From Spirochaetia bacterium (lineage in GTDB: Bacteria; Spirochaetota; Spirochaetia; UBA9216): a stretch of DNA of 64,000 bases. Location of the stretch: the NCBI GenBank assembly GCA_965140585.1, contig OZ223266.1, positions 79,843 to 143,842 on the forward strand, written 5' to 3'. The position numbers and the translations under genes are program-made. The notes beneath the pieces were generated by a model. The model was given only the letters and a program-made list of their open reading frames with translations, did not search any database and was not told the origin of the DNA. Positions 3,274 through 33,616 of this stretch are shown piece after piece (the first letter of the stretch is position 1; each line of letters starts with the position of its first letter).

Positions 3274-5226
3274 TTAAAATTCTTCGAAAAGCATGTCTGT
3301 GTCATCTTCATTTATCTGATTAACCTTTTTCACAGGTGTGATTTTTACGGGGACTGCCAGTCTTGCTGTTTGATTATCCTTCTGCCCTGCAGTGTTATCA
3401 TTTAATGATTTATCAACTTCTGGCGATTTCTTCCCCGCTGCATTATTTCTAATTTTAAAGAATGATATTAGTTTCCCAAGGTTTTCAGCCTGAGTATACA
3501 GTTCTTCGGCCATAGCAAGAGACTCTTCCGCTGAGGCTGCATTAGACTGAATAACCTGGTCCAGCTGCATTATGACAGTACTTATCTGCTGTGCTCCTGT
3601 TGACTGCTCAAGACTGGTGGCTGATATTTCCTGGACAAGATCGGCGGTCTTTCTTATATTTGGAATCATTTCAGAAATTACTGCTCCTGCATGTTCAGCC
3701 TTCTTAACACTTTCATTTGCTATTTCAAATATCTCTGTTGAGGCCTTCTGGCTGTTGGCCGCAAGTTTGCCAACTTCGGCAGCTACAACGGCAAAACCTT
3801 TTCCATATTCTCCCGCCCTGGCAGCTTCTATTGCCGCGTTAAGAGAGAGCAGGTTTGTCTGTCTTGCTATTTCATCAATTACTTTTATTTTCTCAGCAAT
3901 ATTTCTCATCGCCTCAACTGTTTCGCTTACAGCCAAACCTCCGGCATCCGCATCTTCAGCGGCCTGAGCTCCAATTCTTTCAGTCTGATATGCATTGTCT
4001 TTGTTCTGGTCGATTGAACTGCTGATTTCCTCAATCGATGATGAGACTTCTTCTGATATTGATGCCTGCTCGGTGGCTCCCTGTGACAGCTGTTCTGATG
4101 TAGACGTCAGCTGTGAGCTTCCCCTTGATACAATTTCAGATGCTTCCATTACTTCTAGAACTATTTCATTGAGCTTTTTTATCAGGTCATTAAAAGAGCC
4201 GGCAAGCTCTCCTGTTTCATCCTTCCTTTTAAGCATACGTTCGTCAAAATCAATTTTAAGATCACCTTCTGAAAGAAGATTTGCATATCCTGCCGTAATC
4301 CGTATCGGTGAGACTATCGAACGTGAAATTAGAAAAATAACTATAAATCCGATTACAAAACAGAACGCGGTTATTATTATACTGAGCCGGAGAAGTTTTG
4401 TTATCACACTGAATATATCTGCATCTTCCGCAGTTACTCCGATTATCCAGCCTGATTCTGCGCTCTCCTTATAAATATTGGTCTTACTTTCTCCCTTGAA
4501 TTTTTAATGTATAGTCCCTGTCTTATTGCTGACGATCTCTCTGCCGAAATCATATGTTTTAAGATCAAATTTGAGCAGCTGTGTTTTATCGGGATATCCA
4601 ATCATTATACCGTCAGAATCGCTTAAGAAGGCATATCCTGTAGACCCTATTTTGACTGAATCAAGGTAGTTGGTATTGAAGTATGTCTGATCAATTACTG
4701 CAAAGAATACTGCAGTTATTTTTCCATCGATTATGATGGGGGTTGCCGTACCGAAAACCGGATTTTCTGTAACCTTGCTCATAATGACTGCCCCTGCAGC
4801 TGTCTTTCCCTGCATAGCGAGTTTAAAATAATCCCTGTCAGCAATCGAAACTTTGTTTATAAGAGCCTCATTGTCACTGGCAATAATCATTCCGCTGATG
4901 TCTGCAATCCCCAGGCTTTCATACTCCTCTCTTCCTTTTTTAATCTTATTCAGTTCTAAAACAGCACGGCTGAACAATTCATCTGTTCTGCCCTCTATGA
5001 ATTCTGTAAATATTGTGTTTGTACTGAAAATGGACACATCATTTTTTGATTTAACATAGTATGAATCCAGATCCCGCAGAAGCATATCTGCAACCTGATT
5101 CATTTCACTCTCAATAATACGCCTGATTTCACCCTTGAAATTTGAGTATAGAATTAATGAGATGGCGGACATGCCTATAATCAGAATAAGACTGGTAGGA
5201 ATTAGTATCTTTTCTTTGAGTTTCAT
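3274..5226 (-). pseudogene. Methyl-accepting chemotaxis protein (dCache-HAMP-MA) interrupted by an in-frame TAA at 4504-4506
   Basis: ORFs 4504..5226 (TM plus Cache, ADRDYF) and 3274..4407 ([36 protein letters not shown]) are in the same frame. Reading through gives [28 protein letters not shown]. Confidence 0.85.
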
Positions 5227-5523
5227 CTTTATATTCTCCCTGTTGAAAATCTGTTGTAAAAAGTAATGCTTGACTGTTGCTAAACATCAGCGAGACTTTA
5301 ATCACTTTTGATAGCTATGGTAAATTCTATGATTTAGTTTCGGGAAAGCAAGAAAAAATTATTTTTTCCAAGTTTTGTGTTTAATTATAATATCAGAAAG
5401 ATAGTCTGTACGATGCATATCTATTGTGCAATTCCACATGAAACATGCTTTTATAGCCATTGATGACTCAATAATTTCTCATAGATTAATACTCCGGCTT
5501 GATAACAGTCTCTTTTTATGAGA

Positions 5524-5675
5524 TTATACACTGTACATTTCAATGGAAGCGAGGTGTAAATCCTCCGCGGACCCGCCACTGTAATTGGCATTAGTCCCGT
5601 CTATACCACTGTGCGCAAGCATGGGAAGGTTCGGGATATCCGGATATGCCATAAGTCAGGAAACATTGGTGTAAC
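5524..5675 (+). ncRNA. Cobalamin (AdoCbl, class I-like) riboswitch aptamer
   Basis: GGAAgcGAGGTGtaaATCCTC, CCCGCCACTGTAA, TGGCAT/ATGCCA stem, CCACTG-TGC-GCAA-GCA-TGGGAAGG and B12-box AAGTCAGGAAAC; lies upstream of the btu/cbiZ operon. Confidence 0.93.
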
Positions 5676-5692
5676 ACCCAACTTTATTATTT

Positions 5693-5778
5693 GGCTTCGA
5701 GGACTGAGCCGGATTTACCTGATACTATTTTTCGTATAACTAGTAAGGTATTCTCCGCTTTTCCTTTGAAAAGGAGAA
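5693..5778 (+). promoter_or_regulatory. Riboswitch expression platform: P13-like hairpin and an SD-sequestering hairpin
   Basis: GGCTTC-GAGGACT-GAGCC (5693-5710). TTCTCcgCTTTTC-cttt-GAAAAGGAGAA (5751-5778) pairs the AAGGAG SD of ATG 5783. Confidence 0.75.
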
Positions 5779-5782
5779 ACAA

Positions 5783-6298
5783 ATGAAACAGAAAAAACTA
5801 TTTAAGACACTAGCAATGCTGCTTGCCCTTTCCGTGATCATTCTTTCATCAACCGGGTGCAGCGATGTCCTGGGCTTTTTAACCGAACCTTCCCTGATAG
5901 GGGAATGGGATGCCGGTTATGGCACTACCTGGACTTTCAGCTCTGATTCTACTTTTGCCGAGGATGATTCCAGTGCCTTCGACTGGGATTACAGCGGCGA
6001 TATCGTCAAGTACAGCAATATCACATACAATGATGAATCTGAGAATCCGGATGATGCGGATAATTACGGGTACCTCCTGATTAAGTATACAGCTCACTTA
6101 GAATCCTCTTATGTGGATACTTACTCGGTTATCCGATGGTATAACCTGCAGACCGTAGATGGAGTAACAACTGTACAGTACTCTGAAGGGTTTAAGTTCG
6201 GTGCAGATAAAATAACCGATCCTGATGAAGCTCTTGCAACTATTACAGAAGCGAATGGGTACTTCAGTATTTTCTCTACCCTGACTCTTTCAGAGTAA
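5783..6298 (+). CDS. Lipoprotein of unknown family, first gene of the B12 operon (lipocalin-like beta-barrel suspected)
   Basis: Signal MKQKK...IILSSTG-C; LIGEW motif; rich in aromatic and acidic residues. Confidence 0.75.
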   Translation: MKQKKLFKTLAMLLALSVIILSSTGCSDVLGFLTEPSLIGEWDAGYGTTWTFSSDSTFAEDDSSAFDWDYSGDIVKYSNITYNDESENPDDADNYGYLLIKYTAHLESSYVDTYSVIRWYNLQTVDGVTTVQYSEGFKFGADKITDPDEALATITEANGYFSIFSTLTLSE

Positions 6299-6310
6299 CG
6301 GGTTCTGATT

Positions 6311-7336
6311 ATGCCGGTAACAAAAAAACAATTTTTTAATTTTTTCCGCTTTATTGTTCCGGTTTTCTTGCTTGTATTTACTTCAGGATGCGGGGGCTAT
6401 CCGGATGGTCCTTACAGCCCTGATACAGATGATGCAGCATCAGGTCCCTGGGAAGAGGTTCTGGCAGGTGATTCCGGGTATCCGGACAATGTTTATCTGA
6501 CCGCGGTGCTTGACTGGGAATTCGGACAGGTAGGGGAAGTCAGAGTCTCCGATTCTCCTGATTATTACAATTCAGAAAGGTATCCGCTTGACAGCACTGC
6601 GGAAGGAGCCTGCGGCCCTCCTGAGGGTTCTGTAGCCGTTTGGAGTTCAAAAGCTGATATGACAGTTCTTGGTGAAGGCGGCTGGGGAATTTGGCAGTTT
6701 GATGCCGACTGGGTTATTGTTGACGGCGAGGGAGATGATTTTGTGACATTCTCAAATCACAACCTTCTAAGCGGTGTCGCCGACGGTTCATGGAATGAGC
6801 TTGCATATGTATGGGTTGCTGAAACTTACGATCCTGATAATCCGGAAGGTACTGTCTGGTATAAAAGTTCGGCTGAAACATATGTTGTTAATACTTCTCC
6901 CGGAACAATAAATGATAACTACGACTGGTCTGAGGTTTCAGGTCTGCATGGAAACAATCACACCTGGGCAAATTTCAGAGATGAGATAGAGGCTGAAGAG
7001 CTTGATTCCAATGAGCGCTATCAGGAGGTAACTGATTCTGAAGGGAATCAGGTATATGTATCACGTTACTTCAGTCCGAATCCGGATGATCCCGGGTATG
7101 AGTCTTATCCATATATAGGCGGTGATTATTTTGATCTGGCTGATTTTTATACTGTCAATGAGTCAAACTCGTCATGGCCTGATGGTGAATCTTCCTGGCC
7201 GTCCAATGGTAAAATGCGGTACATTCGTTTTGAAGATGCTCCCGAGGCCCTAGACGGTCAGGACTGTAGGCCAGTCTGGATGACAGGTGCCAGGATAATG
7301 GCGGCAATGGGGATTAATGTTGAAGAAGCTCCCTGA
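6311..7336 (+). CDS. Acidic surface lipoprotein, BtuH-like / cell-surface-protein domain, putative cobamide binder
   Basis: Lipobox FTSG-C; motifs VDGEGDDFVTFSN, ELAYVWV, GGDYFDLADF, RYIRFED; operon context. Confidence 0.6.
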   Translation: MPVTKKQFFNFFRFIVPVFLLVFTSGCGGYPDGPYSPDTDDAASGPWEEVLAGDSGYPDNVYLTAVLDWEFGQVGEVRVSDSPDYYNSERYPLDSTAEGACGPPEGSVAVWSSKADMTVLGEGGWGIWQFDADWVIVDGEGDDFVTFSNHNLLSGVADGSWNELAYVWVAETYDPDNPEGTVWYKSSAETYVVNTSPGTINDNYDWSEVSGLHGNNHTWANFRDEIEAEELDSNERYQEVTDSEGNQVYVSRYFSPNPDDPGYESYPYIGGDYFDLADFYTVNESNSSWPDGESSWPSNGKMRYIRFEDAPEALDGQDCRPVWMTGARIMAAMGINVEEAP

Positions 7337-9347
7337 TTTTATTTTTATTCTGATCCTTTTCACCTTATCGCTATCTCATCTGTTCGCCCAGGATGATCAA
7401 GCCATTGGATACGAAATATCCGCTGATGATACCTATACATATGAGGGTGAGGTCGTCATTGAAGACAGCGCTGTCGACGAGGAAAAGCTCATTACTCCAG
7501 GTCAGGTTTCTGTAATTGACCGCGAAGACATTGAAACAAGCGGAGCCCGAACTGTTGCCGAGGCTGTTGAGCAGGTGCCGGGAGTTGTAATTGCCAAACA
7601 GGGCGGGGTGCTTGAACCGGTTAAGATAAGCATCAGGGGCAGCACCGACGCACAGGTACTTATCCTTATTGATGGCAAACCCTCAGCTTCGGTCTGGAGC
7701 GGTGCCTCCGACCTCGGCGGAATCCGGCTTGAAAATGTCGAACGCATTGAAGTGATACGCGGAGCCGGAGCAGCTATGTACGGCGACGGTGCATTCAGCG
7801 GAGTAATCAACATAATCACCAGAGAGCCTGAAAAAAAGCATTTAACAGCTGAGGCTTCTTACGGCTACGGTGCCTGGAATACGCATCTGCTTAATGCCTT
7901 AATATCCGGCCCTTTGTTCGGCGAAAGCGGTTTCGATGTATCCATATCCGGCGGCGGATTGTATACCGGCGGAAACTATGAATACAGTTCGCAGGAAGGC
8001 AGTTTAGTACGTGAGAATAACAGCGGCTGGAGCGCCGGAGGATCCGGAGTTTTTAACTGGGTAGAACCTGAAGAGTCTATGATTTCAGTCTCTGCCGATA
8101 CAGTATTTGACTATACGAACCGCGGAGTTCCGGGAATCTCAGAGTTCCTGACGCCTGAAGCAGAAATTACAGAGCGCACTGCCGGTATCTCACTTAATGG
8201 AACTCTGGACACCGAAGCTTCCGGGGCTTTTTTCATTTCTGCATCCCTTGATAATCTGTACAGCAACTATATCAATCCTGAAGATGATGTAAATAACATC
8301 AACGACAATACTTCGATAGCCTCTGAATTCTCCTGGCAGATTTTTCAGGAAACAGGAGCACTTCTTCTGGATTATAAGGCAGGCCTGAAATATTCATTCG
8401 ATTACCTGTATTCGAACGCCCTCTCCGACAGTACACTCTCTGCAGTTGACGGTAATGCCTCGCAGCACTCGGGCAGCAGCTGGCTTAATCTAACCGCTGA
8501 ATACGGCAGTTTCGATCTGATTCCTGCGGTTCGATATGATTTTGATTACAGCACGTATGCAGGATACGGCGATATCTTCAACAATTTCTTCTCATGGTCT
8601 GCGGCAGCCGGATATTCGCCATTCAGGACTGAAACCGCTGAAGGTCCGCTTTATCTAAAACTGAATGCTGGTACCGGATACAACAGTCCGTCTTTCCGTG
8701 ATCTTTTCTGGCCCTCCGGCTCATTCGCTTCCGGTAATCCCGATCTGGAACCCGAAACAAGCTTCAGCTGGGATGCGGGACTGTATCTTAATCTGGATGA
8801 ATCAGGATTAAGTCTTGAAGCTGTATTCTTTCATTCCGATCTTGAGAACCTTATACAGTGGATGCCGTCCGCGGGCGGTATCTGGCGTCCCCGTAATATC
8901 GGGCTTGCAGAAAATTACGGAATAGAGACCTCTGCGTCATGGCTGTACGAACCAGTTATCATTCCGATCCTTTTTGATCTGACTGCAGCCTACAGCTGGC
9001 TGAACTGTGTAGATGCAGATGAGACCTCGGTAAATCTCGGTAAACAGCTTGCCTACCGGCCCGGGCATACAGCCGATATTTCACTGCGCCTGACTGATGA
9101 ATTCGATGATACTCTCGAGATCGGCGGATCATTTATCAGCTACAGGTATACGAATAATTCAAACACAAAGGCTCTTGATGCAGCCTTTATCCTGTCGGCA
9201 GCCCTGAATGTTAATATCGGAGAGAGTTTCAGGCTTTCGGCAATTGCGGACAACATTACAAATATCGAATATATCGACCGGCTCGGCTATCCCGTGCCCG
9301 GATTTGAATGGACCATAAAGGGTAAATACTACTATGAAAATAAATAG
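7317..9347 (+). CDS. btuB: TonB-dependent receptor, BtuB-like cobalamin receptor
   Basis: Plug motifs VSVIDREDIETSGARTVAEAVEQVPGV, ISIRGS, VLILIDGKP, ERIEVIRGAGAAMYGDGAFSGVINIIT; barrel motif GNPDLEPETS; riboswitch context. Confidence 0.9.
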   Translation: MLKKLPDFIFILILFTLSLSHLFAQDDQAIGYEISADDTYTYEGEVVIEDSAVDEEKLITPGQVSVIDREDIETSGARTVAEAVEQVPGVVIAKQGGVLEPVKISIRGSTDAQVLILIDGKPSASVWSGASDLGGIRLENVERIEVIRGAGAAMYGDGAFSGVINIITREPEKKHLTAEASYGYGAWNTHLLNALISGPLFGESGFDVSISGGGLYTGGNYEYSSQEGSLVRENNSGWSAGGSGVFNWVEPEESMISVSADTVFDYTNRGVPGISEFLTPEAEITERTAGISLNGTLDTEASGAFFISASLDNLYSNYINPEDDVNNINDNTSIASEFSWQIFQETGALLLDYKAGLKYSFDYLYSNALSDSTLSAVDGNASQHSGSSWLNLTAEYGSFDLIPAVRYDFDYSTYAGYGDIFNNFFSWSAAAGYSPFRTETAEGPLYLKLNAGTGYNSPSFRDLFWPSGSFASGNPDLEPETSFSWDAGLYLNLDESGLSLEAVFFHSDLENLIQWMPSAGGIWRPRNIGLAENYGIETSASWLYEPVIIPILFDLTAAYSWLNCVDADETSVNLGKQLAYRPGHTADISLRLTDEFDDTLEIGGSFISYRYTNNSNTKALDAAFILSAALNVNIGESFRLSAIADNITNIEYIDRLGYPVPGFEWTIKGKYYYENK

Positions 9348-10815
9348 ATCCGGAGCTGGAATCAGCTGCGTAGGAGCGATTATATCTGCATTGATTTTGT
9401 TAATCACCTTATCCTGTACGCCTGTTTATGATACCGAATATCAGGCTTTTTTTGCAGCAGATGTTCAAAGATGCCTCTATATACTGAACGGCTCGGCTGA
9501 AAATCTGAGCGGACTGGATCTTGATGAAGGTGAAATATATAACTCACTGCAGACTGTCGGATACTATAACAGCAGCAGTGCCGTTCCCAATGACATCTAT
9601 CAGTATGGCGGAAGACTCTATGTAATTCTGTCAGGTCAGAATTCCATTGAAGCATATGATGCCGGTGAATCCGCCGATGATCAGCTTCTGGACTACCTGA
9701 CTGATTACAGGCATTATTTTAAAAACGGCTACAATCCGATGTATTTCATACCTGTTGACGGAACCTCATGGGTTTTTGTTTCCGGATACAAGACTGATGA
9801 AGTACAGCTTGTTAACCTTGATGATACTGAGACTGGCTACAGTTTTACCGCCTGCTTTGAAGAGGTTGATGATTCTTCATTTACACATTCCGAAATCCAG
9901 ACAACGCCGACTATAAAAAATGCAACAGGCGATAATAAAAAACGGGGCTCTACATCAGGCTCTGTTTATATCGACGGAAGTACAGGCTGGCTCTATGTTA
10001 CCAATGTCCGCTATGATGCGGGAATCCTGCTGACCGAAGGTGATACCCTTGCAGAGTACAGCGGAAGCAATGTTCAGGCGCCGGGAGAGTTCCGTGAAGC
10101 TACATTAAGTATCTTCAGTTTCAACGCTTCGGCACTTACCGACGGAGCTTCTGAATCTTCGATAAACCTTCAGCTGGTGTCGGAAGTAAATCTTGAGGAT
10201 TTTTATTATAGCGCTGCCGGTGGTCAGTACTTTCCGGGAAACGGACTTAACCCCCAGTCTTCATTTATTCACAACGGCCTGCTGAGCATAGTCTGCACCG
10301 GAACCAACGGCGGTTCTGTATCTTATTTCTCAGACTCTGAATACCTGCCGTACCTGTCCGGCTCAACAACCGTGCGGTATGAGGTCGGCGCTGAAAAACC
10401 CGGCACCAATCCCGACGACGGTGTAATTCTTGTCCTTGATTTAAGCAGTCCGGAAGTTCCTGTCTATGCGGGGCATCTGGATATCGGTGGTTCACCGGTA
10501 ATGTTCCGGGAATCCGTTGATGAATCGGGACAGACAGTCTACCTTGCCGGGGTAGGGGGGATTCAGTCTTTTAAATACGGAAACGGTTTTTCCAGCTTTT
10601 CAGTGCTTCATTCATCCGATAACATGATAATCGAAGCTGAGAATTCCGCATATGACTATTATTCAGGTCTGAGTTATGATGAGAATGATGATCTACTTTA
10701 TATCAGTTTTTTCAGTGAAGACAAAATAGTGGCTGTAACCCCGCAGGGAGTCTCTGCGGGTTCATGGATTTCCGGGGATGGACCCGGTGCTTTATTAATA
10801 TATAACAAAGAATAA
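9334..10815 (+). CDS. Beta-propeller (YncE/BtuG-like) lipoprotein
   Basis: Lipobox ITLS-C; repeated propeller-type strands (PNDIYQYGGRLYVILSGQNSIEAYDA, NPMYFIPV..WVFVSGY, WLYVTN, LLYISF); overlaps the TBDR stop. Confidence 0.65.
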   Translation: MKINRSGAGISCVGAIISALILLITLSCTPVYDTEYQAFFAADVQRCLYILNGSAENLSGLDLDEGEIYNSLQTVGYYNSSSAVPNDIYQYGGRLYVILSGQNSIEAYDAGESADDQLLDYLTDYRHYFKNGYNPMYFIPVDGTSWVFVSGYKTDEVQLVNLDDTETGYSFTACFEEVDDSSFTHSEIQTTPTIKNATGDNKKRGSTSGSVYIDGSTGWLYVTNVRYDAGILLTEGDTLAEYSGSNVQAPGEFREATLSIFSFNASALTDGASESSINLQLVSEVNLEDFYYSAAGGQYFPGNGLNPQSSFIHNGLLSIVCTGTNGGSVSYFSDSEYLPYLSGSTTVRYEVGAEKPGTNPDDGVILVLDLSSPEVPVYAGHLDIGGSPVMFRESVDESGQTVYLAGVGGIQSFKYGNGFSSFSVLHSSDNMIIEAENSAYDYYSGLSYDENDDLLYISFFSEDKIVAVTPQGVSAGSWISGDGPGALLIYNKE

Positions 10816-10832
10816 TAATGGAGAACATCCTG

Positions 10833-11728
10833 ATGCTGAAAAATAAAACCATTGTCATTTTCATCCTTCTTACTATTCTGCCTTTTACAGCTTTCGCCGG
10901 TGGCGTCAAAGAAGAGACTACCTTAATGGACAGCCGGTCTGAAACTGAGGCAGGCCCTGCAGCTGATTCTTCCGGGACTCTCAGGGTCGTTTCTCTGGGC
11001 CCTAACATAACTGAAACTATCTTTGCTCTTGGCAAGGGAGATCTTCTTGTCGGAAGGACTGATTACTGTGACTACCCTCCAGAGGCATTGAGTATTCAGT
11101 CAATAGGCTCAATTCAGGAACCGAATACCGAAATGATAATAGCCCTTGAACCCGATCTTGCTATTGCCTCTACTCACGGCTCAAAAGCGGCGGGAAACCT
11201 TCTGCAGCAGGCCGGTATTGATGTAAGATTTTACTACGCCCTGAAGAATTTGAGGGGCTTTATGATATAATCGGTAAAATAGGTGCAGACCTTGGAGCTG
11301 AAGATTCTGCTGAAAAGCTCATAACCGAATTAGAGGGCAGGTATGACGCCCTTGCTGCCGGTGTTAAATTGATGGACTCTCATCCTGATGTTTATTATGT
11401 TGTCGGCTTCGGTGAAGGCGGCGACTGGACAGCTGGAGGAGACACCTTTATAGGGAAGATGATTGAATCGGCAGGCGGAAATAATATAGCTGCAGATGTT
11501 TCAGGCTGGTCCTTTTCGCTTGAAGTACTTCTTGAGCGGGATCCTCAAATAATCATAATTCCGCTTGGAATGAAAGAATCTTTCTGCGGCTACGGGGTAT
11601 ATTCGCAGCTGACTGCGGTACAGGATGGAAGAGTTTTTGAGCTTGATGAAGACATTATTACACGGCAGGGGCCAAGGCTTATTGACGGGCTTGAGTCGCT
11701 TCATAATCTGTTTACCTCGGTTCAGTAA
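10833..11728 (+). CDS. btuF: Cobalamin ABC transporter substrate-binding protein, split by a 1-nt frameshift near 11238
   Basis: RVVSLGPNITETIFALG..LVGRTDYCDYP in the first frame; WTAGGDTFIGKMIESAGGNNI and RQGPRL in the second. Adding one base restores YY(G)PEEFEGLYDIIGKIG. Confidence 0.85.
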
Positions 11729-11755
11729 GATTGATTTTAATCCGGAGCTTCGCTG

Positions 11756-12776
11756 ATGTCTAAAAGAACCGCCGTTGTTATTCTGCCTTTTCTTCTGCTT
11801 ATCTTCCTCATTCCGTTTTCGGCATCATGGGGTGCCGCTGATGTGGGATTTTTAACTGCGCTTAAAGCTATACTGAACAAAGCCGGAATCACTTCGTTTG
11901 ATATCCCGCGTTCGGCACTTCTCATTCTTTTTTCAGTCAGGCTTCCCCGTGTACTGCTCGCAGCATTTGCGGGAGCGGGACTGGCAGCATCCGGTGTTGT
12001 CTTTCAGGCGGTATTCCGTAATCCGCTTGCCGAACCATATCTTCTGGGAATCTCTTCCGGGGCTTCACTCGGTGCTACTGTTGCAATAATATCCGGAGCA
12101 GGAATCCTCACTGCCGGCATAGGTATAATATCCGTTTCCGCTTTTATCGGTTCGGTTCTTACAGTATTTCTCGTTTTCGCTCTGGCCGGAAACCGCCGTG
12201 GAGATTTCGGTAAAATGCTTTTGGGAGGCATAGCTATCGGATATATCTTTCAGGCCGGAATTTCGTTTATGATGATGCTCAACCGCAGTGAGATAGACAG
12301 TATTGTAATGTGGATGATGGGAAGTTTTACATCAGCCGGATGGCAGAAGGTAATTCTCTGCGGCTCTGTTGTCCTTGTCTGCGGCGGCTTTCTTCTGGTC
12401 AACTCAAGAAAGCTCAATATAATGTCTCTCGGCAGCACCGAGGCTCACTCCCTGGGGGTCGATCCTCAGAGTACAGGAGCCTTCTTTCTTATAATAAGCT
12501 GTCTTATAATTGCAGCAATAGTTTCAGTATCAGGAATAATCGGATTTATCGGTCTTATCGTTTCCCCATCTTATGCGGATGCTTACAGGCCCTGAACACA
12601 GCCGCCTGCTTCCAGCTTCCGCAGCTGGGGGAGCCTGCCTTTTGATCCTCTCCGACCTGGCAGCAAGAATGCTTCTGATACCACAGGAGATTCCCGTCGG
12701 AGTCATTACAGCAATTCTGGGAGGCCCCTTCTTCCTTTACATGCTGCGTAAAAGCAGAAAGGCGGCTGCCTTGTGA
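11756..12776 (+). CDS. btuC: FecCD/BtuC-family permease, split by a 1-nt frameshift near 12561
   Basis: VRLPRVLLAAFAGAGLAASG..FRNPLAEPYLLGISSGA. Removing one T of GTTTCCCC restores IGFIGLIVPHLMR...EIPVGVITAILGGPFFL. Confidence 0.88.
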
Positions 12777-13565
12777 TTCTTAATGCGGCTGATGCGGTTT
12801 ACAGCTATCCTGAGGGCTTTTCTTTGGGGCCTGTTAATTTCTCGGCGGGTGAGGGCTGTTTCATGGTTATTCTGGGCCCCAATGGTTCCGGAAAATCAAC
12901 TCTCTTTTCACTGCTCAACGGTCTGATAAAACTTTCCTCGGGAAGTATAAAGGCGGGGCCGCGTAGTATTTCTGCCATTATTCCGGCCGAGAGAGCAAGG
13001 CTTATTGGGAATGATCCCTCAGACGAGTGCAGGGGACTTTGATTATACAGTCCGTGAAATGGTGATGATGGGACGCTATCCTTACCAGAGACTTTTCAGT
13101 CCTCCCTCGGATGAGGATAACCTGGTTGTAGACAGGGTTCTGGACCAGCTTGATATGAGTATGCTGTCAGGCCGCTCGGTCCGCCATCTTAGCGGCGGTG
13201 AGTATCAGCGTGTACTGCTCGGCCGGGTTCTGGCTCAGCAGACTGACATTCTTCTGCTTGATGAACCGGGCAACCATCTTGATTTAAAGCATCAGCTGAA
13301 AATGCTCGGCTACCTTCGTACAATTGCCGATTCTGGAAAGACTGTGGTTGCTGTGCTGCACGATCTTAACCAGGCAATGCACTATGCCGATTTCGGAATC
13401 ATGCTCAAGCAGGGAAAGACTGTAGTCAGCGGTAAGCCCTCCGAATTTATAACTCCTGCCCTTGTTCATGAGGTTTATGATACCAGGGTAAGTGAATATT
13501 TCTGCCCTGAAAACGGCGACCGGATTATCGGTCCGGCATCTGCTGGAGCTTCGGACAATGAATAG
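12773..13565 (+). CDS. btuD: BtuD/FepC-type ABC ATPase, split by a 1-nt frameshift near 13007
   Basis: Walker A GPNGSGKST in the first frame; LSGGEYQRV, LLLDEP and VLHDLN in the second; extra G in ATTGGGAATG. Confidence 0.88.
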
Positions 13566-14343
13566 AACAGCAAAGTATAATTTTGATTCCTTTACTTTCA
13601 CAGTAGATGTTGATGATGACTCCTGCCGTACTGTTTTCAGCAGAAGCGTTCCGGTCATCTCAACTGCTGTTCTGGGCGGTGGAATGAGCTCAGCTTCATC
13701 GGTACTTAATATGAAGGTTAGGCAGAACTTTCTCGGACTCGAAACAGACTTTGTTGAGCCGGCTGAAAGTATAAGACTCTCTGCCTTGGAATATGGACTT
13801 CCCGCACCCTGTATCGGAATGATGACCGCCGCCTCAATGAACAGTTATTGTGATGCTCTGATTCAAGAGCAGGAGGTACGTGTTTTCTGCTGTCTTACCG
13901 CGGGGTTTTCAAATGCTCTGGCCGCCGGTGACAAAGCTTCATTTCTGCCGGAGTTTCTTGCTGAAAAACATTCCTGTAAACAATCTGAAATTAAGCCGGG
14001 TACTATCAATATCATAGCCGGGACTAATATTCCGCTTGCTCCGCAGGCAGCCTGTGAGGCCTTGATGATATGCAGTGAAGCCAAGACTGCCCTCATTCAC
14101 GAACGCGGAATAAAAAGTACAGTTTCTGAAATGTATGCCACCGGAACAGGTACCGATTCAATCCTAGTTTTTTCTGCACCTGCAGCGGCATTTGGCGGTC
14201 CGGAAGGTTTCGGCAGCGAAGGAGAAAAATACTGCGGAAAGCATACAAAACTCGGTGAACTTTTTGCCCGTGCGGTCCGGCAGGCTCTTGGCGGCTCAAT
14301 TGATATTCTAAGCTCAGCAGGATTCGTGGTTACTGAAGTATAA
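13558..14343 (+). CDS. cbiZ: Adenosylcobinamide amidohydrolase (cobamide salvage/remodelling)
   Basis: IGMMTAA, TAGFSNA, GTINII, EAKTA, ATGTGTDS, GKHTKLGEL motifs; ATG 13558 overlaps the btuD end. Confidence 0.9.
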   Translation: MNRTAKYNFDSFTFTVDVDDDSCRTVFSRSVPVISTAVLGGGMSSASSVLNMKVRQNFLGLETDFVEPAESIRLSALEYGLPAPCIGMMTAASMNSYCDALIQEQEVRVFCCLTAGFSNALAAGDKASFLPEFLAEKHSCKQSEIKPGTINIIAGTNIPLAPQAACEALMICSEAKTALIHERGIKSTVSEMYATGTGTDSILVFSAPAAAFGGPEGFGSEGEKYCGKHTKLGELFARAVRQALGGSIDILSSAGFVVTEV

Positions 14344-15315
14344 CGGGTTTTTCTGTTTTAATTCTTCTATCTTTTGTTCAGTCTGTTTCAGATGCGCGAT
14401 GTAGTTCTGAGACTCAGGGTTTAAAGGCCGGTGATTAAGCGACTTCAGAAGTTTTGTATAGCCGTCCAGAAACTCAAGGTATTGCGGAGTAAAAACAGAA
14501 TTTATAAATCTTGAAAGAATGTACTCAACAGCTTCATCTGAAGGGTGGCAAAGATCTTTGGCATACCAGCGGTAGTCGCGAAGTTCATCCATCATAATCT
14601 CGTATGATGGAAAATACCATGAGCCTTCCGAATCATTTTTCACCGCTTCATCTATTGCGCAGCGCAGGACGGCCTTGCTCAGTGAATTTTCAGCAGGCTT
14701 ATCACGCAGATGTCTTACGGGGCTCAGTGTCCATATGATGCGGATACCCGGATTCAGTTTGCGCAGTTTGCTGATTATAGACCGCATATTTTCTGACGCC
14801 TCATCAACGCTGAACATTTCCCGGGCAAAGGTTCCGGCGGATTGCTTGTGGCAGTTATTCACAATCATACCGGTTTTTAAGTGCCTGTAAACAGCTGCTG
14901 TTCCCGCGGTTATTATAATGGCTTCAGCGCTTTCAAGAAATCTCCTGCATTGAGTAAGCGCTCTGTTGAGCATACCGCTGAATATTTCTGCATCTTCGCC
15001 ATAGATTAGAGAGTGAAACATGTAGTGATAATATATTCCATCCCTTTCCAGAAGATCGGAAGGCTTTATCTCGCGGGATTCAATAACCAGTGCAAATGCA
15101 GTTTTCATGGCCGCAGGGTTGTAGATATTTCCAAAAGGGGTTATCTGCACGTTCAGATTGGCAGTATGGAGTTCGTGGTACAGATAGTCAGCAAAACATG
15201 AGCCGGAGAACATTATGCCCCTGCCTTCAAGCCTCCATTCCGGCGGCTTGAAGTTTACTGCGGAGATCTTTCTTCCTGTAAAATCATCAGAGTTTTTATA
15301 TGAGAGAGAAATCAT
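14314..15315 (-). CDS. GSCFA domain-containing protein (SGNH-like)
   Basis: GSCFA, PFGNIYNP, VNNCHK, TLSPVRH, SKAVLR, YFPSYEIMMDELRDYRWY motifs; start uncertain; convergent 30-bp overlap with cbiZ. Confidence 0.88.
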   Translation of the reverse strand: MISLSYKNSDDFTGRKISAVNFKPPEWRLEGRGIMFSGSCFADYLYHELHTANLNVQITPFGNIYNPAAMKTAFALVIESREIKPSDLLERDGIYYHYMFHSLIYGEDAEIFSGMLNRALTQCRRFLESAEAIIITAGTAAVYRHLKTGMIVNNCHKQSAGTFAREMFSVDEASENMRSIISKLRKLNPGIRIIWTLSPVRHLRDKPAENSLSKAVLRCAIDEAVKNDSEGSWYFPSYEIMMDELRDYRWYAKDLCHPSDEAVEYILSRFINSVFTPQYLEFLDGYTKLLKSLNHRPLNPESQNYIAHLKQTEQKIEELKQKNPLYFSNHESC

Positions 15316-17652
15316 AGTTGAAATCAGTCTCCTTGTCTCCCGGGGTTTCACGGCTGAAATCATAAAAGGATGAGCAGCCCTTCTGTTCAGGAAGCGAAAG
15401 CACTTCCTGCGGAAAAATACAGGACAGAAAGCCTGGTTGGTCATGAACTGAATAATCTATATCCTGCTGTGCCGGTGTTGCTACAGTAAAGAATTTACCC
15501 CGGCTGTCGTTGATGCTTCCTTCGACAGAAACCGAGGCTCTGGTTGCAAGCAGGAAGGGCTTTCCCCTTCTGTATATCTCAGCTTTTAACGGCCAGTGCT
15601 TCAGTGCTTCAGTTACTGCTTCATGATCAAGCTCAAGCCAGAGCTGAACCTTATCTGCTCCTGCTTTTTTAAGCTGTTCAGCAGCGTAGCTGTTTGCCGC
15701 AGCCAGCGGAAATCCGGAACTGATAGATATCTCCGGTTCAGGAACCCCTTCAGTATTAATTCCGCCTTCTGTAATCCCGGCTTCCTTTAGAAGATTTATA
15801 TGCGCTATGGATGAAATTCTGAATCTTCTGATACCCTTGCGGTAGGCTTCAATGATTTCTTCTTTCAGATCGGCAAGCCGGGCCTCGGGACAGAAGAATG
15901 GCAGAAGCAGTTCTTCTCCGCTTTTTGCTGCCTGCGTTAAATCTGCTGCCTTGATGAAATCTGAAAGCCCTGTGTTCCGAACTCTGTTGCCGGGGTTGTA
16001 AACAGTCTGCTCCTGCTGTGCCTCCGGGGTTATACTGATTCTCCGCAATTCTTCTTTTTTTCTCTGATCATTATTAAAATCTTCAAGCCAGCTGCTGCCG
16101 TCCTTCGATTCAAGAAGCGGAGATATCTGTTCAGCAGCCCATTCCCAGAAGCCCCGGCGAAGCTTTTTAAGTCTTCCCGCAGGTAAAAACAGCTCACCGG
16201 TAATTTCTGCATCCAGTCTGCCAAGGCGTATTCTGGCTTCCCTTGTTGCAGTAAAGGCTTCCTGTAAATTATCTTCCGACAGCGGATGCTGCTGCGCCGT
16301 GTCAATTTCACTGCTGTCTTCCCAGACAAGAGCCTTTCCGGGTGAGGCTCCGTTTATACCGCTGATCGAAATTTCCATTCCGGAATTACTCACCTTTATG
16401 CGGATATCTATTTCTGCAGGCTTGGAGTATAAAGGAAGATCCTTCGGAACTTTTACAGCCTCTTTTGATGTATCTCCAATTTTATAAATACGACCGCTTT
16501 GTGCGATTTCCTTATCGCAGTTGATAAAAACCTTATCGCCCTTAACCGCCAGGTTAACCTGCTGCCGGTTTTTACTCATCTTTGTTATGGTGAAGGCAGG
16601 ACCTTCGTCTCCGGTTTTTGTTTGTATTCTGATTCTGTCGCCGATATGCATCCGGCGGCTTACTGATGCTGTAAAGCCTCCATTCGCTGTTTTTACTACC
16701 TCGCCGGCAAGCATTCCCGATACACCGGGTGATTCATAGTGAATCAGACCGGCCATATCATCTTCGGATATGAAACCGTGCGACCATTTTCTACCGTAAG
16801 AATTTGACAAGATATTTCTGGCTTCACCAAGTGTTCTGCTGCGCTGGCTTCTGTCGCAGTCGAGCATCATACGGTAGGCGGTAACCACGTTCTTCACGTA
16901 GTCAGCCTTTTTCAGGCGGCCTTCAATTTTTAGAGAAGCAACCCGGCTTCAGTAAGTTCATCCAGCATATCCAGGCTGTAATAATCCTGAGTACTGAAGA
17001 AGAACCCGCTTTTTTTTGTTCCGTTTTCATCGCTGTGAAAGCGTCTGCGGCAAGGCTGTTTACACCGCCCCCTGTTTCCGCTCCAGCCTCCCATCCATGA
17101 TGAAAATAGACAGTGTCCGGATACCGAGCAGCAAAGCGCTCCGTGAACAAAGACTTCTATCTCAAGAGGTGAGGCCTCTATAATTGATGAAAGTTCGGTC
17201 ATGGTAATCTGGCGTTCGAGTATCACACGTTCAATACCGAAGGATTGGGCGGTCTTAACCCCGGCACTGTTATGTATACCCATCTGGGTTGAGCCGTGGA
17301 GTGTAAGCTGAGGAAAATATCGTTTTAGAAATAGAGCAGCGCCGATATCCTGTATGATAACCGCATCAGGCTCCAGGCCTGCTATCTTTTCAACTGATCG
17401 CCCGAAATCTTCAAGTTCATTTTCCTTGATAAGTGTATTGAGTGTCAGATAGAGCTTCTTTCCGAGTTTTTTCGTATGTGCTGACAGTCTGGACATGTCA
17501 TCAAAGGTGAAATTTTCGCCCATCTCACGGGCGTTAAAGCGGCTTATTCCGGCATAGACCGCATCAGCTCCGCTCTGAAATGCTGCAATTGCACATTCCA
17601 GGTTTCCGGCCGGAGCCAGCAGTTCCGGTTTTATTTTATCTTTTGCTTTCAT
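15296..17652 (-). CDS. U32-family protein (long RlhA/collagenase-like RNA hydroxylase type), split by a 1-nt frameshift near 16943
   Basis: PELLAPAG, GADAVYAG, EVFVHGALCCSVSGHCLFSS..SGNRGRCKQPCR. Adding one G to GCC GGG TTG restores AGVASLKIEGRLKKADYV and joins ORF 15296..16897. Confidence 0.85.
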
Positions 17653-27455: not shown

Positions 27456-27484
27456 ATCATAATTCGATATTTTTCACTAGTCAA
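27456..27484 (-). promoter_or_regulatory. Sigma70 promoter giving a probable leaderless mRNA for the QueG-like gene
   Basis: TTGACT-N17-TATGAT-N6-ATG, no SD. Confidence 0.7.
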
Positions 27485-28778
27485 TCAAAGAATACAGCGA
27501 AAGCTCCATCCATGAACCCAGTTCCTCGGCAAGGGCTCCGAAGTAGGCAGCCTCCGCTTCTCTTTCTGCAAGCACGGCGTCATCCAATTCTGTATTTGAA
27601 TATTCTCCCTGTTCAAAGAGAAACTCTGCTTCGGCTTTCAGTTCTCCGGCCTGTTCCAGTTCAATCCCTGATATCTCTGTGTTGATTGCAGCGGTCTCTA
27701 TGGTGCCGGTAAGCTGCAGCAGTGACAGCTGTGCAGAAGCTTCCGCTGAATTTTTATATTCACTGCTAAGTTCAAGCTGTTTTTTCAATTCGCTCCGTTC
27801 CTCTGCATTCCAGCTGTCTGAAGTCAGGCCGATACTGACAGATGCGGAAACCTTTGCCGCTTCCTGCTGACTGAAGTCAGCACCCCCGGATGCACTAAGT
27901 TCAGGTGAGAACAGCCAGACTTCCTTCAGTTCCGCCTCAGCTGTTTTTCTGTCAATATCTGCGGAAAGTACTTCATAGCTGAAATCAGCAGAGTAATCAC
28001 TTATGTCAGTTGCTGCCTTAATCCTGGTTAGTTCAGATTCAATAGTCTGTCTGTCTGCAGGTTCTATACTTACAGCCTCCGGGGTTGTATTCAGAATTGA
28101 ATAAAGTTCATTCTCTGCGGAGTTAAGTGCCTGCGAAGCCGTATTCATTGCGGTCCTTGACTCTGACCAGTCAAGCAGGGCATCTCTAACATCATCAAGG
28201 GTAGCTTCTCCCTCATCATATCTAATGCGCTCATCTTCATAGATCTGTTTCATCAACGCCAGTCTGGACTCCGCATTTTCCTTGTCACCAAGAGCCTTCG
28301 ACCAGGACATATAAGCTGCAGCTGCATTTATCACAGTCTCGGTTACTGCATTGTTCAGGGCAATTTCAGCTTTTCTGAGACTGAGATCAGCAAGCTTGCT
28401 CTCTGATGAATGATACAGGGGGTTAATACTGACTCTGATGCTGCTGTTAAGCTGTTCGTCCACCGAGAAACTGAATCCCAGCTGATCTATAAGAGGAAGT
28501 TCAGCGTTTATTCCGGTCTCAAGCTCCGAATATTCAGATCCGGAAAAACCTGTGCTCAGTGAAATTGAACTTTCCTCCAGTTTGAATATTCCGCTAAGAC
28601 TGTTCCGAGCTTTCAGAACAGCCAGTCCTGCTTCCTTTATATCCAGGTTGCTGTTGACTGCATATTCACTCACCCCGGCAATTGTTTTCAGGCTCAGTGT
28701 TTCATTATCAGCAGAGACAGGAATTATGGCTGATGCTGTAATTACAGCAGTAAATATTATAAATTTTAGAGTTTTCAT
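27477..28778 (-). CDS. TolC-family outer membrane efflux protein
   Basis: Signal peptide, helical repeats (YAVNSNLDIKEA, RYDEGEATLDDVRDA, FEQGEYSNTEL); last gene of the exporter operon. Confidence 0.75.
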   Translation of the reverse strand: MKTLKFIIFTAVITASAIIPVSADNETLSLKTIAGVSEYAVNSNLDIKEAGLAVLKARNSLSGIFKLEESSISLSTGFSGSEYSELETGINAELPLIDQLGFSFSVDEQLNSSIRVSINPLYHSSESKLADLSLRKAEIALNNAVTETVINAAAAYMSWSKALGDKENAESRLALMKQIYEDERIRYDEGEATLDDVRDALLDWSESRTAMNTASQALNSAENELYSILNTTPEAVSIEPADRQTIESELTRIKAATDISDYSADFSYEVLSADIDRKTAEAELKEVWLFSPELSASGGADFSQQEAAKVSASVSIGLTSDSWNAEERSELKKQLELSSEYKNSAEASAQLSLLQLTGTIETAAINTEISGIELEQAGELKAEAEFLFEQGEYSNTELDDAVLAEREAEAAYFGALAEELGSWMELSLYSLID

Positions 28779-30085
28779 GATTCCCTTATTGTTTCAGCAA
28801 TATTTCCCTGAACAGAAGAAACTGCCGGGAGCAGACCGAGAATTCCCCCGAATCCTACCGCTATCAGTACAGCAGTAATTAATGCACCAGCCCTTAACCC
28901 GGCAGTTTCGGCAAAGCTTTCAGATATTTCTCCTGCAAGGGGTGCAATGCTCTGCAGAACCGGATGTGAAAATATGAGTGAAAGTACTGCACCGGCAGCT
29001 GCTCCGCAGAGACTTAAGGATATAGCCCAGCTCCAGAAGTCGCGTACAACGATCAGTCTTGATGCCCCCAGAGCTCTCTGCAGTGCTATCTCACGGCGCC
29101 TGCTAAGTGATTCCACCACCATAATGCTGAAAATCCCCAGTGAGCTTGTGAGCAGCAAAATGATGCCAAGCAGATTTATTGTTACTGTAAAAATTCTGAC
29201 CGAGTTTCTAAGCTCTTCCATATATTCAGAGGTTCCACGAGGCGAACCTTCCCATACAAGAATGTCGATTTCCTCTCCGTAGACTGCTGTCAGAGACTGT
29301 CTTATCGCTGCTCCGGCTTTTTCAACCGAAGAAGCTGAAGTCTTAACTGCAATAGTCCCTGCCATCATGTCTTTGGCAAGCTGCGCATTTCTTCCTGATG
29401 GAAGCATTGCAGTATATGGAAAAACAACATCGCCGATTTCGTAGGATTTTCTTGAAACCTCACCAGGTGTTTTAAATACTCCGGTAACCGTATAGCTTGT
29501 TATCATATTCTGTTCACGCATTCCACCCGGCCCCCTCTGGAATACTTCGCCCGGCGGCTGGATATATTTCCCGACTGCTGCTTCAGCTGAGCCGAATAGA
29601 ATCTCTGCTGTTTCTTCCGAAATCCAGACCTTCTTCATTCCCTGAGCCAGATCGGAATCTGTCATTGGAAGTCCTGCAGTGATCTCAAGACTGAATACAT
29701 CAAAATAGGCCGGTTCGGCAGCTATTGCCGTTCTTATCCTGTATGATTTTCCATCAGCTGTAAACTCATGGAAGGGGGTGCTGGATACTATGGAGGCGCT
29801 TTCAACGATGCCTGAATCACTTACCAGAACAGAACCCGCGCTGCTGTCCCATTCCGCCGGTCTGTTGAGTGAAATGCTTCCGTCACTGTCCCATTCTCCG
29901 TTTGCCGTATACAGGATCAGCCCGTTTTCCTCAAGCTGACCTGACACTTCATTTTTAATGATCGATGATGCACTGAGCGATAGAATAAGTACCGCTGTTC
30001 CAAGTGCTACTGAAACCAGTGTCAGGCTTATTTTAAGCGGTGCTGTTGTGAACTGTCGTTTGAACATGGAAATTATCTGTTTCAT
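28775..30085 (-). CDS. MacB/FtsX-type ABC permease
   Basis: TM1, periplasmic domain, then IFSIMVVESLSRRREIALQRALGAS. Confidence 0.85.
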   Translation of the reverse strand: MKQIISMFKRQFTTAPLKISLTLVSVALGTAVLILSLSASSIIKNEVSGQLEENGLILYTANGEWDSDGSISLNRPAEWDSSAGSVLVSDSGIVESASIVSSTPFHEFTADGKSYRIRTAIAAEPAYFDVFSLEITAGLPMTDSDLAQGMKKVWISEETAEILFGSAEAAVGKYIQPPGEVFQRGPGGMREQNMITSYTVTGVFKTPGEVSRKSYEIGDVVFPYTAMLPSGRNAQLAKDMMAGTIAVKTSASSVEKAGAAIRQSLTAVYGEEIDILVWEGSPRGTSEYMEELRNSVRIFTVTINLLGIILLLTSSLGIFSIMVVESLSRRREIALQRALGASRLIVVRDFWSWAISLSLCGAAAGAVLSLIFSHPVLQSIAPLAGEISESFAETAGLRAGALITAVLIAVGFGGILGLLPAVSSVQGNIAETIRES

Positions 30086-31500: not shown

Positions 31501-32173
31501 TTTCCTGCCTCTTGTCTACTATACGGCCGTCGCTCAGTTCAATAATTCTGCCGGCACGCTTTCCCTGGGAGGGGTTATGGGTAACCATAACTATAGTCAC
31601 TCCCTTTGAGTTGAGATCTTCAAGAATTTTCAGAATTTCCTCACCCTTATCGGTCGGAAGGTTTCCTGTCGGTTCATCCGCAAGGATAAGATCGGGATTG
31701 TTTGACAGCGCTCTTGCAATGGCAACCCTCTGCTGTTCACCGCCGCTTAACATGGTAGGCAGGTGTTTCATACGGCTGCCCAGTCCCACTTCATTAAGAA
31801 GTTCAACCGCCCGGTCTTTACGCTGAGAGAAGGGGATACCGGCATAGCTCATCGGCAGCATAACATTCTCAAGGGCGCTCAGCTCCGGGAATAAATTGAA
31901 ACTCTGAAAGATGAAGCCGAAGTGTCTGTTGCGAATTCTGGCCTGTTCCCGGTCGGGAAGCGCTGTTATATCGTAATCTTCAAGCAGATACTTTCCGCCG
32001 GTTGCCGAATCCAGTATTCCGACTATGTGCATAAGTGTTGATTTTCCTGAGCCGGACGGCCCCATCACTGCTATGTATTCACCTCGTTCTATTTTAATAT
32101 TTATGCCGCTTAGAGCATTAACCTTTACATCGCCAAGGTCATAGCTCTTGCTTATTCCGTTTAATTCAATCAT
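31490..32173 (-). CDS. ABC ATPase, MacB/LolD type
   Basis: GPSGSGKST, GFIFQSFNL, LSGGEQQRVAIARAL, ADEPTGNL. Confidence 0.95.
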   Translation of the reverse strand: MIELNGISKSYDLGDVKVNALSGINIKIERGEYIAVMGPSGSGKSTLMHIVGILDSATGGKYLLEDYDITALPDREQARIRNRHFGFIFQSFNLFPELSALENVMLPMSYAGIPFSQRKDRAVELLNEVGLGSRMKHLPTMLSGGEQQRVAIARALSNNPDLILADEPTGNLPTDKGEEILKILEDLNSKGVTIVMVTHNPSQGKRAGRIIELSDGRIVDKRQENAL

Positions 32174-33476: not shown

Positions 33477-33518
33477 TTTAATCTCCACATAAAAAATACA
33501 TCATATTCATATTGGAGC

Positions 33519-33555
33519 TGTTAAACCGCTGTAAAACGATTGTAAACTTTGTAAA
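33519..33555. promoter_or_regulatory. OmpR-family direct-repeat binding site between the exporter operon and the two-component system
   Basis: TGTTAA (33519), TGTAAA (33530), TGTAAA (33541), TGTAAA (33550); spacings 11, 11 and 9 bp. Confidence 0.65.
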
Positions 33556-33616
33556 AACTGGAATCTGCAAACCTGAAAATATAGAAGAAAGCTCAATCAG
33601 AGGTTATTATTGCTTT

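Follow-up and report, generated by a model that had tools for sequence, protein, structure and literature searches.

The locus considered here, at 5487-14343 of a 64,000-nucleotide (nt) stretch of DNA from a Spirochaetia bacterium (hereafter the window, to which all coordinates refer unless one of nine related loci, L001-L009, is named), raises the question of what a cobalamin riboswitch, three lipoprotein genes and the gene of a TonB-dependent receptor (TBDR) are doing together in a spirochaete. The only lipoprotein-capped TonB-dependent B12 transporters characterised to date are those of gut Bacteroidota, in which competitive fitness is decided by them. The answer that we favour, with a probability of about two in three, is that the locus, in a marine-type Spirochaetia bacterium, is an operon for cobamide uptake under the control of the cobalamin riboswitch, with BtuB/BtuG-like capture in which a beta-propeller lipoprotein, here called lipoC, serves as a lid on the receptor. 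Judged by homology and gene order, the conserved core of this operon is a four-gene outer-membrane module, made up of a BtuB-type TBDR gene with lipoC immediately downstream of it and two further lipoprotein genes, lipoA and lipoB, upstream.

An Rfam covariance scan found a full-length match to the cobalamin riboswitch aptamer RF00174 at 5487..5686 on the forward strand (76.0 bits against a gathering score of 31.5, E 6e-17, positions 1-189 of the 189 in the model), and this was the sole Rfam family above its gathering score across the entire window. An earlier note on this DNA had already placed a cobalamin riboswitch ahead of the operon, and the start that it gave, 5524, falls within the aptamer. 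A 96-nt leader, the putative expression platform, follows (5687..5782, +), carrying the Shine-Dalgarno sequence AAGGAG at about 5772-5777, and then come lipoA, lipoB, the TBDR gene, lipoC, btuF, btuC, btuD and cbiZ, with spacings of 96, 12, -20, -14, 2, 27, -4 and -8 nt from the aptamer through to cbiZ; ORFs (open reading frames) and Pfam/NCBIfam matches bear out the eight genes in the order that had been claimed. The last of them, cbiZ (13558..14343, +), encodes an adenosylcobinamide amidohydrolase (PF01955, 164.9 bits against a cut-off of 27, profile positions 2-190 of 191); its longest ORF runs from 13492, and its start would be the ATG at 13558, which overlaps the btuD stop by 8 nt. The next gene, of the GSCFA family (14314-15444), is convergent to the operon, which therefore ends at 14343, just as the earlier note had proposed. 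No terminator-like site was detected in 5200-5850, and a terminator-type expression platform was rejected on that account; the Shine-Dalgarno sequence is able to pair with a CU-rich stretch upstream, in a fold that is not distinctive (z -1.8), so that we only infer translational control by the riboswitch.

Related loci were obtained by a genome scan with the lipoC alignment, which gave the nine loci mentioned above, and these were then searched by tblastn and with Rfam; the loci not counted as informative for a given gene end at contig edges. All nine come from metagenome-assembled genomes (MAGs) of Spirochaetia, which agrees with the suggestion in the earlier note of a probable spirochaete, and the few database homologues of lipoB (32 including the window's own protein) and of lipoC (32) that carry organism names are from Spirochaetales or Oceanispirochaeta. 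Synteny had been named at the outset as a test that could refute the association of the lipoproteins with the receptor and the riboswitch, and it came out in favour of that association in other Spirochaetia: the TBDR gene lies directly upstream of lipoC in 8/8 loci that have upstream DNA at all, lipoB occurs in 7/7 that reach far enough upstream, lipoA and a B12 riboswitch are found in 6/6 that do so (one of these riboswitches being matched best by the AdoCbl model RF01482), and riboswitch, lipoA, lipoB, TBDR and lipoC occur jointly in all six loci with sufficient upstream DNA. NCBI locus tags from two MAGs also put lipoB and lipoC two genes apart. Of the related loci L001 is the closest; it comes from a Spirochaetia MAG with 88-90% DNA identity to the window and was used as the reference for insertions and deletions (indels) and for the ratio of non-synonymous to synonymous substitution rates (dN/dS), by which the three lipoprotein genes are under purifying selection (0.07-0.26).

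The complete eight-gene order was found also in L001 and L003. In L007 and L009 the btuFCD-cbiZ genes are divergent and stand behind a second riboswitch, with two cobalamin riboswitches back to back (L007 5973-6450, L009 6104-6512), one for lipoA-lipoB-TBDR-lipoC and the other for btuFCD-cbiZ, and in L004 (11416-13154) and L005 (2727-4448) exbB-exbD-tonB directly follows lipoC, replacing btuFCD-cbiZ. In the window itself the TonB, ExbB and ExbD families had no match among the 60 ORFs scanned (thresholds 0.01 and 1e-5), as the earlier note had also found, and TonB dependence of the receptor is implied by its plug domain together with the tonB-exbBD genes beside the module in the two relatives.

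Three other features of the related loci were observed. About 1 kb downstream of lipoC, L007 (12426-13944), L008 (4925-6440) and L009 (12074-13697) carry a DUF1007 and NicO-type gene pair, a putative Ni/Co transporter, ahead of which no riboswitch was detected in any of the three. The lipoC orthologue of L008 (2749-3912) has 387 amino acids (aa) matching query residues 26-407, its C-terminus being apparently truncated. L001 has about 2.1 kb extra (4034-6128, corresponding to 5387-5464 of the window, from which it is absent) between a chemoreceptor gene and the riboswitch, encoding an ABC_sub_bind-like protein (504 aa) and a HisKA_2 histidine kinase fragment (206 aa).

The TBDR gene (7317..9347, +) encodes a protein of 676 aa with Plug (PF07715, 89.7 bits) and barrel (PF00593, 113.3 bits) domains, and its best NCBIfam model is TIGR01779 (TonB-B12; 159.5 bits against an equivalog cut-off of 599.7). 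When a profile made from the window's receptor and seven orthologues was searched against PDB sequences, the nine best matches were all BtuB chains (E 1.8e-35 to 4e-32), with Cir next at 1e-31; Bacteroides thetaiotaomicron BtuB2 and BtuB1 were matched at E 1.8e-35, E. coli BtuB from 2.7e-33, and B. thetaiotaomicron BtuB3 was matched as well. By profile homology the receptor is confirmed as BtuB-type, and with RF00174 upstream of it the proposal of a BtuB-type receptor under riboswitch control stands. One lipoC homologue of 810 aa (P0019) bears a TonB-receptor barrel domain; it is probably the C-terminus of a receptor and lipoC read as one gene, which would be consistent with the 14 nt by which the two genes overlap in the window.

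The lipoC gene (9334..10815, +) encodes a BtuG-like beta-propeller lipoprotein of 493 aa with insertions, in which Cys28 comes after a hydrophobic segment and is shared by at least 90% of the 31 family members. An AlphaFold2 (AF2) model of it (predicted local distance difference test score, pLDDT, 89.4; predicted template-modelling score, pTM, 0.88) was compared with the PDB by Foldseek, and the first 11 matches listed (ranks 1-13) were B. thetaiotaomicron BtuG chains (E 9e-12 to 7e-10, template-modelling (TM) score on the target 0.66-0.75, identity 11-12%), with the related B. uniformis structure 3dsm next; the earlier note had called the protein a beta-propeller, and this fold comparison agrees, with BtuG as its best solved match. 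It is about 150 residues longer than BtuG. No Pfam or NCBIfam family could be assigned to it, no propeller Pfam model matched at E<=1 and the only match was to DUF2283 at E 0.027, while just 7/31 family members matched the generic Beta_propel model. An exhaustive search with the lipoC profile found 195 proteins at E<=1e-3 and 61 at E<=1e-10, and many of the 195 are lipoproteins of 340-430 aa which align to the N- and C-terminal thirds of lipoC, without the middle insertions. Fifty-two of these shorter relatives aligned to the lipoC family with an hhalign probability of 100 (E 6.5e-69), and their profile in turn matched the BtuG1, BtuG3 and BtuG2 chains of the PDB (E 2e-24 to 3e-16; BtuG3 over its full length), with YNCE (PF21783) detected in 18/52 and the yvtn repeat (TIGR02276) in 42/52; the PDB depositors' name for BtuG1 and BtuG2 is "YncE family protein". 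On the strength of these profile matches lipoC belongs, as an enlarged and highly divergent member, to the YncE/YVTN propeller superfamily, which also includes BtuG. The long matches of the lipoC profile (637-704 aa) were considered as BtuG-BtuH fusions and rejected, since what they join to the propeller is a PKD domain or a type IX secretion tail, and DUF5074, considered as a possible family name for BtuG, gave no B12 link in the literature searched.

A complex of the receptor (residues 170-676, the barrel with the plug omitted) with mature lipoC (29-493), both supplied as alignments, was then modelled. The interaction score ipSAE (interaction prediction score from aligned errors) was 0.67, 0.63 and 0.68, against 0.00 for the best of three controls; the ipSAE mark is reached by 116/157 solved complexes and 2/215 mismatched pairs, counts that hold only approximately where one's own alignments are supplied. 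The runs share at least 50% of their contacts and the partner has a pLDDT of at least 88, so the pairing of lipoC with the receptor, for which the earlier note had suggested complex modelling, is supported by prediction. Receptor contacts recur every 48 residues or so (225-227, 274-278, 324, 472, 517-520, 572-573, 609-620 and 653-657) and include the loop before the last strand, so that by standard TBDR topology they would lie on the extracellular face. The interface is richer in conserved columns than the rest of either protein (11/30 against 74/477 in the receptor, p 0.005; 14/36 against 92/429 in lipoC, p 0.018). We conclude that lipoC is predicted to cap the outer loops of the receptor.

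In the uptake pathway that we propose, low intracellular cobamide would cause the riboswitch to permit expression of the operon, as is expected from its riboswitch family. Seated like a lid over the receptor's extracellular loops, in the manner of Bacteroides BtuG on BtuB, lipoC would capture the corrinoid and pass it to the receptor, and TonB-ExbBD, whose genes adjoin the module in two relatives and are not in the window, would energise passage through the barrel. BtuFCD would then move the corrinoid over the inner membrane. CbiZ, as is known of its family, would cleave the aminopropanol-linked lower part, and incomplete or unsuitable corrinoids could in this way be rebuilt. For the particular sequence in hand, either assembly errors or a very recent, strain-level loss of the inner-membrane leg would have to be added to this scheme.

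Several points weigh against the reading of the locus as a cobamide uptake operon with a BtuG-like lid. As they stand in the window, btuF, btuC and btuD are broken, and the receptor is far under the equivalog cut-offs for BtuB, both for TIGR01779 (as given above) and for NF007926 (112.7 against 836 bits). Searched against the PDB as a single sequence, lipoC had 0 matches at E<=10, and the profile of its family had three matches, none of them BtuG. In the structural comparison unrelated seven-bladed propellers (1ri6, 6nau) come close behind BtuG (E about 1e-9, TM on target 0.71-0.73); as modelled, the structural preference for BtuG is real but not large. The profile of the 52 shorter relatives matches an archaeal YVTN S-layer protein better than BtuG (E 2e-38, in repeat matches), Lp49, hydrazine synthase beta and YncE are matched at much the same level as those BtuG chains that score lower, and the homology of lipoC to BtuG would therefore be at the superfamily level, short of orthology. 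The complex was modelled with the plug omitted from the receptor chain, its score may come partly from likeness to solved BtuBG complexes, and the test of interface conservation shares its alignments with the predictor and so is not independent of it. Neither lipoA nor lipoB has a detectable link to known corrinoid binders by PDB sequence and profile searches or by Pfam, and for all of these proteins corrinoid capture, localisation and response to B12 are predicted properties.

Among these points the state of the inner-membrane transporter genes gives rise to the most probable of the alternatives. The btuF gene (10818..11728, +), for a periplasmic corrinoid-binding protein, is split into ORFs at 10818-11270 (Peripla_BP_2 positions 1-82) and 11369-11728 (141-234); btuC (11756..12776, +), for a FecCD-type permease, into ORFs at 11756-12595 (FecCD 1-248) and 12573-12776 (252-311); and btuD (12773..13565, +), for an ABC ATPase, into ORFs at 12773-13042 (ABC_tran 2-51) and 13005-13565 (62-135). 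The best or near-best NCBIfam models for the three are BtuF, BtuC and a corrinoid- or heme-type ATPase. Compared with L001, each split results from one uncompensated 1-nt indel, being -1 nt at around 11239 in btuF, +1 nt at around 12561 in btuC and +1 nt at around 13005 in btuD of the window, and the halves of all three genes share one frame in L001, L003, L007 and L009, with whole ORFs of 298, 339 and 263 aa in L001. Two neighbouring genes on the reverse strand are also disrupted. A chemoreceptor gene (dCache-HAMP-MCP, 3274-5226) has an in-frame TAA at 4504-4506 where L001, with a single ORF of 670 aa, has TAT, and a U32 peptidase / DUF3656 (collagenase-type) gene (15296-17652) has a 1-nt deletion at around 16942 relative to L001 (single ORF of 787 aa), the fourth frameshift within 5.7 kb. 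Altogether there are five disruptions in the 4.5-17 kb part of the window, and every affected gene is intact in L001. The eight-gene operon of the earlier note thus stands in its order and coupling, with the correction that btuF, btuC and btuD are not intact ORFs, each carrying a 1-nt frameshift; its claim that the operon covers inner-membrane import is right about the presence of the btuFCD families and fails for the sequence as assembled, in which all three are frameshifted.

It could be that the operon is a decaying remnant, the frameshifts being real and corrinoid import across the inner membrane blocked, so that the locus is heading to loss or is reliant on a second btuFCD elsewhere, and we take this to be a serious contender, at somewhat less than even odds. 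The clustering of the five disruptions (the TAA at 4504-4506 and the indels at around 11239, 12561, 13005 and 16942) in genes that are intact in the relative speaks for it, as does the rest of the window, where no split genes were seen among the ORFs scanned in 17.7-64 kb, suggesting that the assembly is not uniformly error-ridden. However, all operon genes are under purifying selection relative to L001 (dN/dS 0.02-0.26) and the broken transporter genes are the most constrained among them (0.02-0.15, with btuC at 0.02 and its protein 97-99% identical to that of L001 at 88% DNA identity), which means that any inactivation must be very recent. Each transporter gene has one lesion and there are zero in the 5.9 kb of lipoA, lipoB, TBDR, lipoC and cbiZ, whereas random decay predicts otherwise. 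In the alignment to L001 the indels are all of a single base and lie within or beside short runs, and such indels are a common consensus error in long-read or mixed-strain assemblies. As the broken genes are the most constrained, the lesions would be either very recent or assembly errors. The point has a practical side, in that automatic annotation would be led by these frameshifts to call the strain unable to import B12, when they may be an assembly artefact. Programmed frameshifting was rejected, since there are three different sites in three genes with no common motif and all are absent from relatives, and so was an alternative genetic code for the chemoreceptor stop, which is a single TAA where L001 has TAT.

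If the operon is for cobamide uptake, as we favour, it has still to be asked what lipoA and lipoB contribute to it. The first (5783..6298, +) encodes a lipoprotein of 171 aa of an unnamed family, whose lipobox Cys26 is invariant in 7/7 positional orthologues. A word-indexed search gave one close homologue only, and it was tblastn on the related loci that revealed the wider conservation, with lipoA at the same position in L001, L003, L004, L006, L007 and L009 at 28-93% identity. No match to lipoA was found in Pfam, NCBIfam or PDB sequences, and its family profile also had no PDB match; the nearest language-model (Atlas) clusters consist of hypothetical proteins from Spirochaetota, together with a single "lipocalin-like" cluster at 0.94 that offers no more than a lead. 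The second gene, lipoB (6311..7336, +), encodes a mostly beta lipoprotein of 341 aa, also of an unnamed family, with Cys27 invariant in 29/29 members. Its AF2 model (pLDDT 87.5) had only one Foldseek match listed below E 1e-3 in the PDB, namely 8blw_B (BtuG1 with a fused BtuH domain), at E 8e-5 and with a TM of 0.26/0.15, which is a poor superposition; the other matches were lectin or jelly-roll folds at E >0.03, and the BtuH2 entry 7BIZ was not among the 50 matches listed. No Pfam or NCBIfam family was found for lipoB, and neither its sequence nor its family profile matched the PDB, BtuH included.

The earlier note had suggested comparing the structures of the lipoproteins with BtuG, BtuH and BtuJ, and a likeness of lipoA or lipoB to BtuH or BtuJ found no support: in Pfam none of the 29 lipoB and 7 lipoA members matched DUF4465 at E<=1, and with a sole listed fold match below E 1e-3, at TM 0.26, and no PDB profile match lipoB was set aside as an unsupported candidate relative of BtuH or BtuJ. 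A different lead for lipoB comes from the Leptospira LIC_13355 family of lipoproteins (NF033170), which 11/29 lipoB members match weakly (best E 1.9e-4) and after which its nearest Atlas clusters are named (0.93); the window's own lipoB had no match to NF033170 at E<=1. LIC_13355 has been investigated for its binding of host components and is reported to occur at the cell surface and in the outer-membrane fraction, B12 and TonB being unmentioned in the accessible part of that report (PMC11891782). The btuB gene of L. interrogans is LIC12374, and judging by the locus number LIC13355 does not lie beside it (PMC3953431, in the text available). As a clue to the function of lipoB the family was rejected, since no link to B12 or TonB was found in the accessible parts of the literature on it.

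A second alternative, which we consider unlikely, is accordingly that lipoA and lipoB lie outside the capture machinery and are merely co-transcribed with it, for example as lipoproteins that face the periplasm and serve in housekeeping or in the envelope. That neither is similar to a known corrinoid binder fits such a role, and so does the fact that the only family lead for lipoB is to the LIC_13355 lipoproteins, whose context, as far as the accessible text of the sources goes, is one without B12, TonB or btuB adjacency. Their position tells against it, as both are kept between riboswitch and TBDR (lipoA in 6/6 and lipoB in 7/7 loci) down to 28-40% identity, the lipoB and TBDR genes overlap by 20 nt, and both lipoprotein genes are under purifying selection (dN/dS 0.07 for lipoA and 0.26 for lipoB relative to L001). 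Taken from their sequences and their neighbourhood, lipoA and lipoB are conserved co-operonic lipoproteins of new families, and their part in the uptake system is probably in additional capture or relay, or in assembly.

The least probable of the alternatives, and one that we regard as quite improbable, concerns the cargo: lipoC might be a generic YncE/YVTN propeller lipoprotein that sits on the receptor without binding corrinoid, as a cap, assembly factor or shield, or the cargo might be some other compound linked to the riboswitch, for instance a cobalt complex or solely an incomplete corrinoid. The likeness of lipoC to BtuG at fold and superfamily level only would allow this, and the putative metal transporter pair (DUF1007 and NicO-type) downstream in L007, L008 and L009 points the same way. 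Set against it are the presence of the B12 riboswitch, btuFCD and cbiZ together in one operon, both in the window and in L001 and L003, the best solved relatives of the receptor, which are BtuB, the BtuG chains as top structural matches of lipoC, and a predicted cap geometry which matches the BtuBG arrangement as it is described in the accessible text of PMC10404256.

The closest known system to the uptake operon proposed here is that of the B. thetaiotaomicron BtuB-BtuG complexes (loci 1-3) with the BtuH, BtuJ and BtuK lipoproteins, as far as it is set out in the parts available of PMC6143338, PMC10404256, PMC13616437 and PMC13398666. As in that system there is a B12 riboswitch upstream, btuFCD lies in the locus, the propeller lipoprotein gene is directly beside that of a BtuB-type receptor whose outer face the propeller is predicted to cap, and additional lipoprotein genes are found in the operon. 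The differences are that the phylum is Spirochaetota, that cbiZ is within the operon, that lipoA and lipoB are of other families than BtuH, BtuJ/DUF4465 and BtuK, and that corrinoid binding by lipoC, unlike that by BtuG, is a proposal. In addition, lipoC has 493 aa against about 340 in BtuG, with insertions, 11-12% identity in the structural alignment and no direct sequence match. According to the accessible text of PMC6143338, BlastP criteria turned up homologues of BtuG in Bacteroidetes alone, and lipoC falls short of that level of similarity, being linked to BtuG only via the intermediate family. No paper describing such a spirochaetal BtuB-lipoprotein module was found in the literature searched, in which BtuG and Spirochaetota were co-mentioned only via DUF4465.

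Likenesses to three other systems are more partial. The E. coli BtuB-BtuFCD system shares the riboswitch-controlled BtuB-type receptor (E. coli BtuB at E about 3e-33), the BtuF/BtuC/BtuD-type ABC importer and the implied TonB dependence, but E. coli BtuB works without a surface lipoprotein and the E. coli genes do not share an operon with cbiZ and three lipoprotein genes (PMC10404256, in the part available). The YncE/YVTN superfamily (PF21783, TIGR02276) is matched by the shorter relatives of lipoC (18/52 and 42/52), whereas the window's lipoC, with its lineage-specific insertions, matches no propeller Pfam model at E<=1. The LIC_13355 family (NF033170) resembles lipoB in being spirochaetal lipoproteins of about 300 aa and a language-model neighbour at 0.93, but as the window's lipoB has no NF033170 match and LIC_13355 has no B12 or TonB context in the accessible text on it, the relationship is a lead and not membership.

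A bolder version of the proposal, which we offer tentatively and hold to be more doubtful than not, is that marine or free-living Spirochaetia have their own four-part cobamide capture machine, composed of the BtuB receptor, an enlarged and distant BtuG-type lid, and lipoA and lipoB as new corrinoid-binding or relay classes. If that were true, lipoprotein-assisted B12 piracy would not be a Bacteroidota speciality and would have arisen, or been kept, in a second diderm phylum with different accessories, and as a corollary the weakly related Leptospira LIC_13355 "adhesin" family may be a nutrient-capture family. The favoured reading of the locus, if correct, would itself bring a conserved riboswitch-controlled equivalent in Spirochaetia, so that the mechanism would reach into a second phylum and into marine habitats, and would add two new candidate families of corrinoid-handling lipoproteins. 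It also offers an annotation rule for "hypothetical" spirochaetal lipoproteins, namely the arrangement of lipoA, lipoB, TBDR and lipoC behind a B12 riboswitch.

Elsewhere in the window, a MacB-type efflux set at 27477-36042 (OEP, two MacB_PCD/FtsX permeases, an ABC ATPase and a HlyD-type adaptor) lies beside a histidine kinase / OmpR-type response regulator pair, and at 44998-46662 a protein of 554 aa matches only positions 5-99 of the 161 in the GGDEF profile, which may reflect a degenerate GGDEF domain or another lesion.

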